Origin: Escherichia coli
GTDB lineage: Bacteria > Pseudomonadota > Gammaproteobacteria > Enterobacterales > Enterobacteriaceae
NCBI RefSeq assembly: GCF_003334305.1
Contig: NZ_QOWS01000037.1
Reading direction: 5' to 3' (one strand)
DNA: 24,028 bases
The notes beneath the pieces are model-generated. The model saw nothing but the letters and a program-made list of their open reading frames with translations, was not told the origin of the DNA and did not search any database. Positions 18,792 through 18,892 of this stretch are shown in pieces. The number at the start of each line of letters is the position of its first letter. Position 1 is the first letter of the stretch. The position numbers and the translations under genes are program-made.

Positions 18792-18892
18792 ATGCCGGAT
18801 GCGGCGCGAACGCCTTATCCGACCTACAAAAATTTGTAAATTCAATAAATTGCAGAATTCACGTAGGCCTGATAAGCGAAGCGCATCAGGCA
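18792..18892. repeat. BIME/RIP-type element: two inverted REP sequences flanking an IHF-like core
   Basis: REP ATGCCGGATGCGGCGCGAACGCCTTATCCGACCTAC (18792-18826) and inverted REP GTAGGCCTGATAAGCGAAGCGCATCAGGCA (18863-18892), separated by an A/T-rich spacer containing AATTCAATAAATTG, which resembles the IHF consensus WATCAANNNNTTR. Confidence 0.7.

Follow-up and report, generated by a model that had tools for sequence, protein, structure and literature searches.

Genomic context of the pfkA-sbp spacer

In the window analysed here, a stretch of 24,028 nt of Escherichia coli DNA taken as a whole, pfkA and sbp are neighbours, as the preliminary description had said; both lie on the minus strand and are separated by a spacer of 319 nt (18629-18947) that is read from pfkA towards sbp (Table 1). 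Compared with other E. coli, the spacer is 100% identical to those of M8 and 2017.04.02CC and 97.8% identical to that of K-12. It holds one BIME-1 unit only, which is extragenic, lies between the pfkA stop codon and the pfkA terminator, and starts 56 nt past the stop codon on the minus strand. This region had been delimited as 18792-18892 and described as two inverted REPs around an A/T-rich core; the repeat finder and the consensus matches returned that very architecture, and the limits proved right to 1-2 nt. The inverted arms were paired over 12 nt with 92% complementarity and over 21 nt with 76%, and the ends of the two REPs that face each other across the linker are CCTAC (18823-18827) and GTAGG (18863-18867).

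Table 1. Features of the pfkA-sbp locus, in window coordinates
Feature	Position	Strand	Remarks
BIME-1	18794-18891		Y REP, L linker and inverted Z1 REP
Y-type REP (palindromic unit) GCCGGATGCGGCGCGAACGCCTTATCCGACCTAC	18794-18827	+	CCTAC end abuts the linker
L linker AAAAATTTGTAAATTCAATAAATTGCAGAATTCAC	18828-18862	+	35 nt, A/T-rich
IHF-like core ATTCAATAAATTG	18840-18852	+	One mismatch to WATCAANNNNTTR
Inverted Z1-type REP GTAGGCCTGATAAGCGAAGCGCATCAGGC	18863-18891	-	On the + strand, GTAG end towards the linker
Natural target of the IS621 bridge recombinase ATCAGGCCTAC	18863-18873	-	Exact match; core CT at 18866-18865
Outer left flank CTTTATCGAT	18784-18793		From the 26-copy alignment
Outer right flank ATTTTTGCTTCT	18892-18903		Resembles the aATgTTGCGTTTG flank of other copies
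Intrinsic terminator of pfkA	18739-18764	-	8-bp stem 18764-18744, U-run, RNA 3′ end at 18739
pfkA CDS	18948-19910	-	5′ neighbour in transcription order; BIME-1 lies in its 3′ UTR
sbp CDS	17639-18628	-	Promoter region ~18629-18738, starting just past the pfkA terminator

Conservation among copies of the element reaches about 10 nt outside each REP, which extends the repeat to 18784-18903. On the left, the flank is similar to GCTTTGTTCaT, which stands beside the Y REP in most other copies of the 26-copy alignment, and it is probably the 'A' motif of the BIME literature; the right flank is probably the 'B' motif.

When the minus-strand RNA of 18700-18950 was folded, a z score of -3.98 was obtained, and none of 200 shuffled sequences folded as well (0/200). 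Within this RNA, the Y REP forms a hairpin of -18.2 kcal/mol and the Z1 REP one of -13.2 kcal/mol. The predicted fold also contains a weak hairpin of 4 bp (AGGC...GCCU) right behind the pfkA stop codon, at 18915-18935 on the minus strand, and a difference between K-12 and the window, at 18919, sits inside it. A chance palindrome was considered as an explanation of the element and was ruled out by the fold z score of -3.98, the Rfam E value of 2e-08 and the 25 loci with the same architecture.

Two further Rfam matches above threshold were found in the window, a ClpQY (hslVU) promoter element at 5119-5176 (+) and an L31 ribosomal-protein leader at 455-507 (-), which are ordinary features of this chromosomal region.

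Identification of the element as a BIME-1

Elements of the BIME-1/RIP type have been described since the early 1990s, reportedly in work by Gilson, Bachellier and Hofnung, by Oppenheim and Rudd in 1993 and by Boccard and Prentki in 1993, under the names BIME-1, RIP and RIB. The label 'RIP' for the pfkA-sbp element is, we assume, the EcoGene-style one. According to the published definition (Ton-Hoang et al., PMC3333891), a BIME-1 consists of one y and one z1 unit, occurs singly in a REP/inverted REP arrangement, and has a long, well-conserved linker, L, that often carries an IHF site. Alignment to the BIME consensus, which the preliminary description had proposed as a check, was carried out with the Y and Z1 consensus sequences quoted in the Methods of PMC11208160. 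Positions 18793-18827 are identical to the Y consensus TGCCGGATGCGGCGTAAACGCCTTATCCGGCCTAC at 32 of 35 positions, and the reverse complement of 18862-18891 agrees with the Z1 consensus GCCTGATGCGCTACGCTTATCAGGCCTACG at 29 of 30; the right-hand REP scored 54 against Z1 vs 38 against Z2 and is thus of the Z1 type. Since every sequence feature of the published definition is present, the pfkA-sbp element is assigned to BIME-1, and the RIP-type identity originally suggested is upheld jointly by the two consensus matches, the shared linker, the Rfam score and an entry in a published list. Judged by its sequence, the feature is a canonical BIME-1.

The finding is correct yet already known, as the orthologous K-12 copy (4108571-4108668 in MG1655) stands in the published BIME-1 list. 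Table DS3 of Sutormin et al. (PMC6379681) gives 78 BIME-1 in W3110, typically of 97 nt, and its entry BIMEs1 3529134-3529231 (97 nt) corresponds to the pfkA-sbp element. The correspondence was established from the sums of MG1655 and W3110 coordinates across the W3110 inversion for three neighbouring BIMEs, and these sums (7637802 for pfkA-sbp, 7637803 for the yiiM-cpxA BIME-2 and 7637813 for the rhaD-rhaA BIME-2) agree within 11 nt. The RefSeq feature table of MG1655 carries no repeat features across the 24.5 kb that contain the three BIMEs.

Other copies and the Rfam family

Species-representative genomes were scanned with a 17-mer from the linker core, AAATTCAATAWATTGCA, and at least 122 matches were obtained. 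The 17-nt core AAATTCAATAAATTGCA is common to the window, to K-12, to the copies of E. coli E69 and to those of Pseudocitrobacter. Among the matches listed, the full Y-L-Z1 layout was found in at least 25 other loci (about 25-26): K-12 contributes its orthologue, E. coli E69 eight copies, two Pseudocitrobacter genomes 15 between them, and stray contigs two. The linker measures 33-36 nt in all 25 of the other two-REP copies listed. About 96 of the at least 122 matches come from unrelated A/T-rich genomes, are without REPs and represent chance hits. BIME-1 is a mosaic repeat of approximately 100-120 bp, and an E. coli genome holds about 80 copies that are nearly identical. A perfect Y-L-Z1 BIME-1 was seen on a contig of an uncultured Bacteroides MAG and on a 262-nt contig of Desulfosporosinus sp. 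OT, both of which are most likely enterobacterial contamination or mis-binning.

In Rfam, RF02751 (ES036/CssrF) matches the + strand of the element at 18829-18870; the score is 46.2 bits, where the gathering threshold is 37.6, and E = 2e-08. This match might be read as a small RNA, ES036 (CssrF), encoded at 18829-18870, and CssrF is indeed known as a transcript of about 290 nt, but from a different locus, dacB/yhbZ in Shigella (PMC3071730). We give this reading almost no credence. The 43-nt model is identical to the BIME-1 linker followed by GTAGGCCT, the first 8 nt of the Z1 REP, so that all BIME-1 will match it; the match is antisense to pfkA/sbp, whose transcription is the only one known to cross the region; there is no promoter-like site at the locus; and the Term-seq tables have no corresponding 3′ end (+ strand of the window, minus strand of K-12). 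Because RF02751 is in effect a model of the BIME-1 linker, every enterobacterial BIME-1 will be flagged as a small RNA gene.

The linker and its IHF-type core

The L linker holds a small palindrome, TGYAA...TTGCA, together with an IHF-type core. An IHF-like motif had been claimed for the core and was found there: ATTCAATAAATTG agrees with the consensus at 12 of 13 positions, shows the same single deviation in every copy examined, and is alone, on the two strands of the 319-nt spacer, in coming within one mismatch of WATCAANNNNTTR. The literature on the class describes the L linker as a specific site for IHF, and that of the pfkA-sbp BIME-1 is probably bound by it. The main text of the IHF ChIP-seq paper by Prieto et al. 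does not mention REP or RIP, and the pfkA-sbp locus has no entry in the lists of Myers et al. A Dps ChIP site at MG1655 4108758-4108982 covers the sbp promoter, not the BIME-1.

Among eight haplotypes, two polymorphisms fall in the IHF core, 18848 A/G at an N position and 18852 G/A at the R position; the B2-type variant has 18848G and 18852A. As both lie at degenerate positions, the consensus match is kept in all of them, which with eight haplotypes is no more than suggestive.

The pfkA terminator and the 3′ untranslated region

Downstream of the element, a second terminator-like hairpin had been placed at 18740-18763. It is real (18744-18764) and has a mapped RNA end at its 3′ side. On the minus strand it reads GAGGCGGA-UUUCU-UCCGCCUU followed by UUUAAU, with a folding energy of -13.7 kcal/mol; the 8-bp stem is rich in G+C, the loop has 5 nt, UUUUUAAU stands directly 3′ of the stem, and the window and K-12 are identical across the hairpin. 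An automated terminator scan of 18550-19050 reported nothing, which we think is due to the scan drawing the stem out into the U-run. By Term-seq in MG1655 (Adams et al., PMC7815308), an RNA 3′ end was mapped to 4108723 (+) in two growth conditions, with an intrinsic-terminator score of 10.4 (threshold 3). This position equals 18739 of the window and lies 111 nt upstream of the sbp ATG. The same Term-seq tables contain no 3′ end within the BIME-1. Since the mapped end lies downstream, at the terminator, the BIME-1 is located wholly within the pfkA 3′ UTR of about 209 nt, and since the steady-state end is not at a REP, a role as stabiliser is not evident in the conditions sampled.

Position 4108723 is also flagged as part of a significant Rho termination region (Rho score 3.22), and the reads downstream of it number 71 without BCM and 208 with BCM (PMC7815308). 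The signal may come from attenuation that depends in part on Rho and takes place in the 3′ UTR, which is untranslated and contains REPs, as has been reported for other REPs; for the BCM effect, events downstream in sbp could be just as much the cause.

These data bear on the reading that the element acts mainly as RNA, its REP hairpins stabilising the pfkA message and, with Rho, attenuating read-through into the cys-regulon gene sbp, while IHF binding is incidental. At the level of the class, REPs have been reported both as stabilisers of 3′ UTRs and as partial Rho-dependent terminators, and the local observations fit this in that the pfkA transcript carries the repeat in its 3′ UTR, that the REP hairpins are stable (-13 and -18 kcal/mol) and that the pfkA 3′ end falls in a region of significant Rho termination. 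We nevertheless regard this reading as rather unlikely, given that Term-seq shows no 3′ end at the REPs, that a strong intrinsic terminator (10.4) within 30 nt already provides a protective 3′ hairpin, and that a preprint found no detectable Rho dependence for short REP units of 2-4 hairpins.

A further conjecture would make the IHF-bound BIME-1 a conditional valve, in which IHF bending and/or REP-assisted Rho action sets how far glycolytic pfkA transcription runs on into sbp. The element precedes the pfkA terminator by 30 nt and the CysB-controlled sbp promoter by about 100 nt. The sole hint in this direction is that a strong intrinsic terminator has a Rho score of 3.2. We hold this to be very unlikely; if it were true, the coupling of pfkA and sbp would have been rewired in the 2% of strains whose Z1 REP carries IS621.

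Distribution among E. coli strains and related genera

Presence or absence across E. coli strains, the other comparison that had been suggested at the outset, was examined in 5426 complete genomes, and the element is near-fixed. The locus is uninterrupted in 5312 of them, carries IS621 in the Z1 REP in 110, the strains WAT, SMBL and JNEC-KY180 among them, and something else in four, and BIME-1 is kept at pfkA-sbp in 99.9% of complete E. coli genomes. The natural target sequence of IS621 has been published (PMC11208160), and the Z1 REP contains it exactly (Table 1). In the occupied locus, the 1279-bp IS621 is inserted between GTAG and AGGCC with duplication of the AG/CT core (example locus 3627/3628 and 4907), and thereby separates pfkA from its terminator and from the sbp promoter. 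IS621 is also present in other, similar BIME-1 copies, for which reason junction queries of 80 and 200 nt over-count; the figure of 110 was obtained with a 280-nt junction query that includes more of the unique flank.

Among the other genera sampled (Cronobacter, Metakosakonia, Klebsiella sp., Yersinia and Salmonella), BIME-1 is absent from the pfkA-sbp spacer. The spacer measures 165 nt in Cronobacter, 147 nt in Metakosakonia, 213 nt in Yersinia and 305 nt in Klebsiella sp., and each of these four has its own simple hairpin terminator. In one isolate of Salmonella enterica, the spacer has 200 nt and a REP-like pair stands in the same place (locus 2319-2385), CTTATCCGGCCTA and TAGGCCGGATAAG forming a perfect inverted repeat of 13 bp over a linker of about 11 nt; this spacer shows no L/IHF core and no separate U-run terminator. 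Upstream of sbp, a block running from GTTATAGCCAATCTTTTTTTATTCTTTAAT to TTTCTGGCACGCT (about 18640-18715, minus strand; about 2400-2470 in the loci of the other genera) is conserved from Yersinia to E. coli, and is presumably the CysB-dependent sbp promoter. The stretch between this block and the pfkA stop codon is genus-specific. BIME-1 is thus specific to one lineage, in which it was added to a terminator region that is itself variable.

Polymorphism and constraint

The repeat (18784-18903) is the most polymorphic stretch of the locus. Differences between the window and K-12 occupy 6 of its 120 positions vs 22 of 2155 elsewhere (Fisher P = 0.003), and among eight haplotypes 14 of 120 sites are variable in the repeat vs 15 of 389 elsewhere (Fisher P = 0.003); in the pfkA terminator, 0 of 27 sites vary. 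Such a distribution argues against strong purifying selection on most of the repeat, and its polymorphism may result from gene conversion between copies or from relaxed constraint.

It may be asked whether the element is a locally neutral or selfish repeat doublet that persists as a harmless passenger in a tolerant spacer of the Escherichia lineage, any IHF binding being a property of the family and not a service to pfkA or sbp. The density of polymorphism, the highest in the locus, is in keeping with this, as are the interruption by IS621 in 110 genomes and the fact that Cronobacter, Metakosakonia, Klebsiella sp. and Yersinia do with a plain hairpin terminator, of which E. coli also has one. 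The retention of the repeat in nearly all complete E. coli genomes speaks against it, as do the IHF core, which has changed less than the rest of the linker and whose two polymorphisms are neutral for the consensus, and the class-level evidence for effects in 3′ UTRs. We consider this explanation less likely than not but give it substantial weight.

Gyrase and the distinction from BIME-2

Possible binding of gyrase, stabilisation of upstream mRNA and insulation of the adjacent genes had also been named in the preliminary description, the last two being properties attributed to the class. In the Topo-seq table of Sutormin et al. (PMC6379681), no gyrase cleavage site (0) was recorded at the pfkA-sbp BIME-1 in any of the four drug conditions, namely ciprofloxacin, rifampicin plus ciprofloxacin, microcin B17 and oxolinic acid. 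The same data show that the BIME-1 class is depleted of gyrase sites (3 observed vs 9.0 expected, ciprofloxacin, P = 0.02) and that the BIME-2 class is enriched in them (104 vs 18.7 expected), and in gel shifts the affinity of gyrase was higher for BIME-2 than for BIME-1 (PMC1475751). The gyrase claim was therefore dropped, the association being mainly one of BIME-2. That the pfkA-sbp BIME-1 insulates the two genes topologically by binding gyrase is, on these figures, scarcely credible, even though binding of gyrase by REPs/BIMEs in vitro has been reported and one BIME stopped the diffusion of supercoils in an engineered cassette: the locus lacks cleavage sites under all four conditions, its class is depleted where BIME-2 is enriched, and its class binds gyrase less tightly. 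The gyrase and insulator attributes commonly given to 'BIMEs' thus do not transfer to BIME-1.

The identity of the element as a BIME-2 was likewise considered and ruled out, by the presence of Z1 and not Z2, the 35-nt linker, the single unit and the lack of gyrase cleavage sites.

The window contains a second REP element, at 23871-23954 between yiiM and cpxA, in which a short linker joins an inverted Y REP to a Z2 REP and which is of the BIME-2 type. It is matched by Rfam naRNA4 (RF02564) with 78.6 bits, and corresponds to the entry BIMEs2 3534212-3534295 in the Sutormin table, where it has 0 gyrase cleavage sites.

Proposed role and implications

We consider it highly probable that the locus as a whole is best explained as a canonical BIME-1 in the pfkA 3′ UTR, placed before the terminator and the sbp promoter, with a mechanism drawn from what its class is thought to do. 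At the DNA level, IHF would probably bind the L linker and put a bend between the two REPs, where the pfkA unit ends, as proposed for the class. At the RNA level, both REP hairpins are transcribed in the pfkA message and may serve as secondary or back-up barriers to 3′-exonucleases; they may also act as a weak, partly Rho-dependent brake on read-through towards sbp. Copies of the element would be multiplied and remodelled by the REP-associated tyrosine transposase; they serve REP-targeting insertion sequences, here IS621, as landing pads. Any local effect on pfkA or sbp is probably small, since a separate strong terminator stands within 30 nt and other genera lack the repeat.

As a discovery, the element carries little weight, and the outcomes are practical. 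The region is best annotated as a repeat plus a terminator, and not as a regulatory novelty or a small RNA gene. In addition, the IS621 landing site, filled in 110 sequenced strains, supplies ready natural variants for testing the effect of BIME-1 on its neighbours.

Comparison with known systems

The terminator downstream of the element matches a canonical intrinsic terminator in its stem, loop, U-run and mapped 3′ end, but such a terminator alone would not predict the Rho score of 3.22 observed in this region. With RF02751 ES036 (CssrF), the element shares the model sequence; the family is annotated as a small RNA gene, whereas no separate RNA is indicated here. BIME-2 (Y-S-Z2) resembles the pfkA-sbp element in its Y REP, its extragenic position and its layout as an inverted pair, and differs in having Z2, a short linker without an IHF core, a frequently tandem arrangement and an enrichment of gyrase cleavage.

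REPINs, or REP doublets that are mobilised by REP-associated tyrosine transposases (TnpA-REP, RAYT), likewise comprise two inverted REPs in one larger palindromic unit. Conservation of the outer flanks points to copying of the entire unit, about 120 nt long; no transposase gene was found in the window. BIME-1 would, on this view, be mobile as a unit, and the linker with an IHF site is particular to the enterobacterial BIME-1.

From the BIME-1/RIP class, the copy in the window differs at three points, 18822 G to A, 18837 C to T and, in the loop of Z1, T in place of A. The first two are private changes, of which 18822 G to A makes the Y REP stem weaker in the DNA and 18837 C to T disrupts the small palindrome of the linker. 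In its parts, their order, orientation and sequence, its single copy, its extragenic position and its location at the 3′ end of a transcription unit, the pfkA-sbp element is like BIME-1/RIP.
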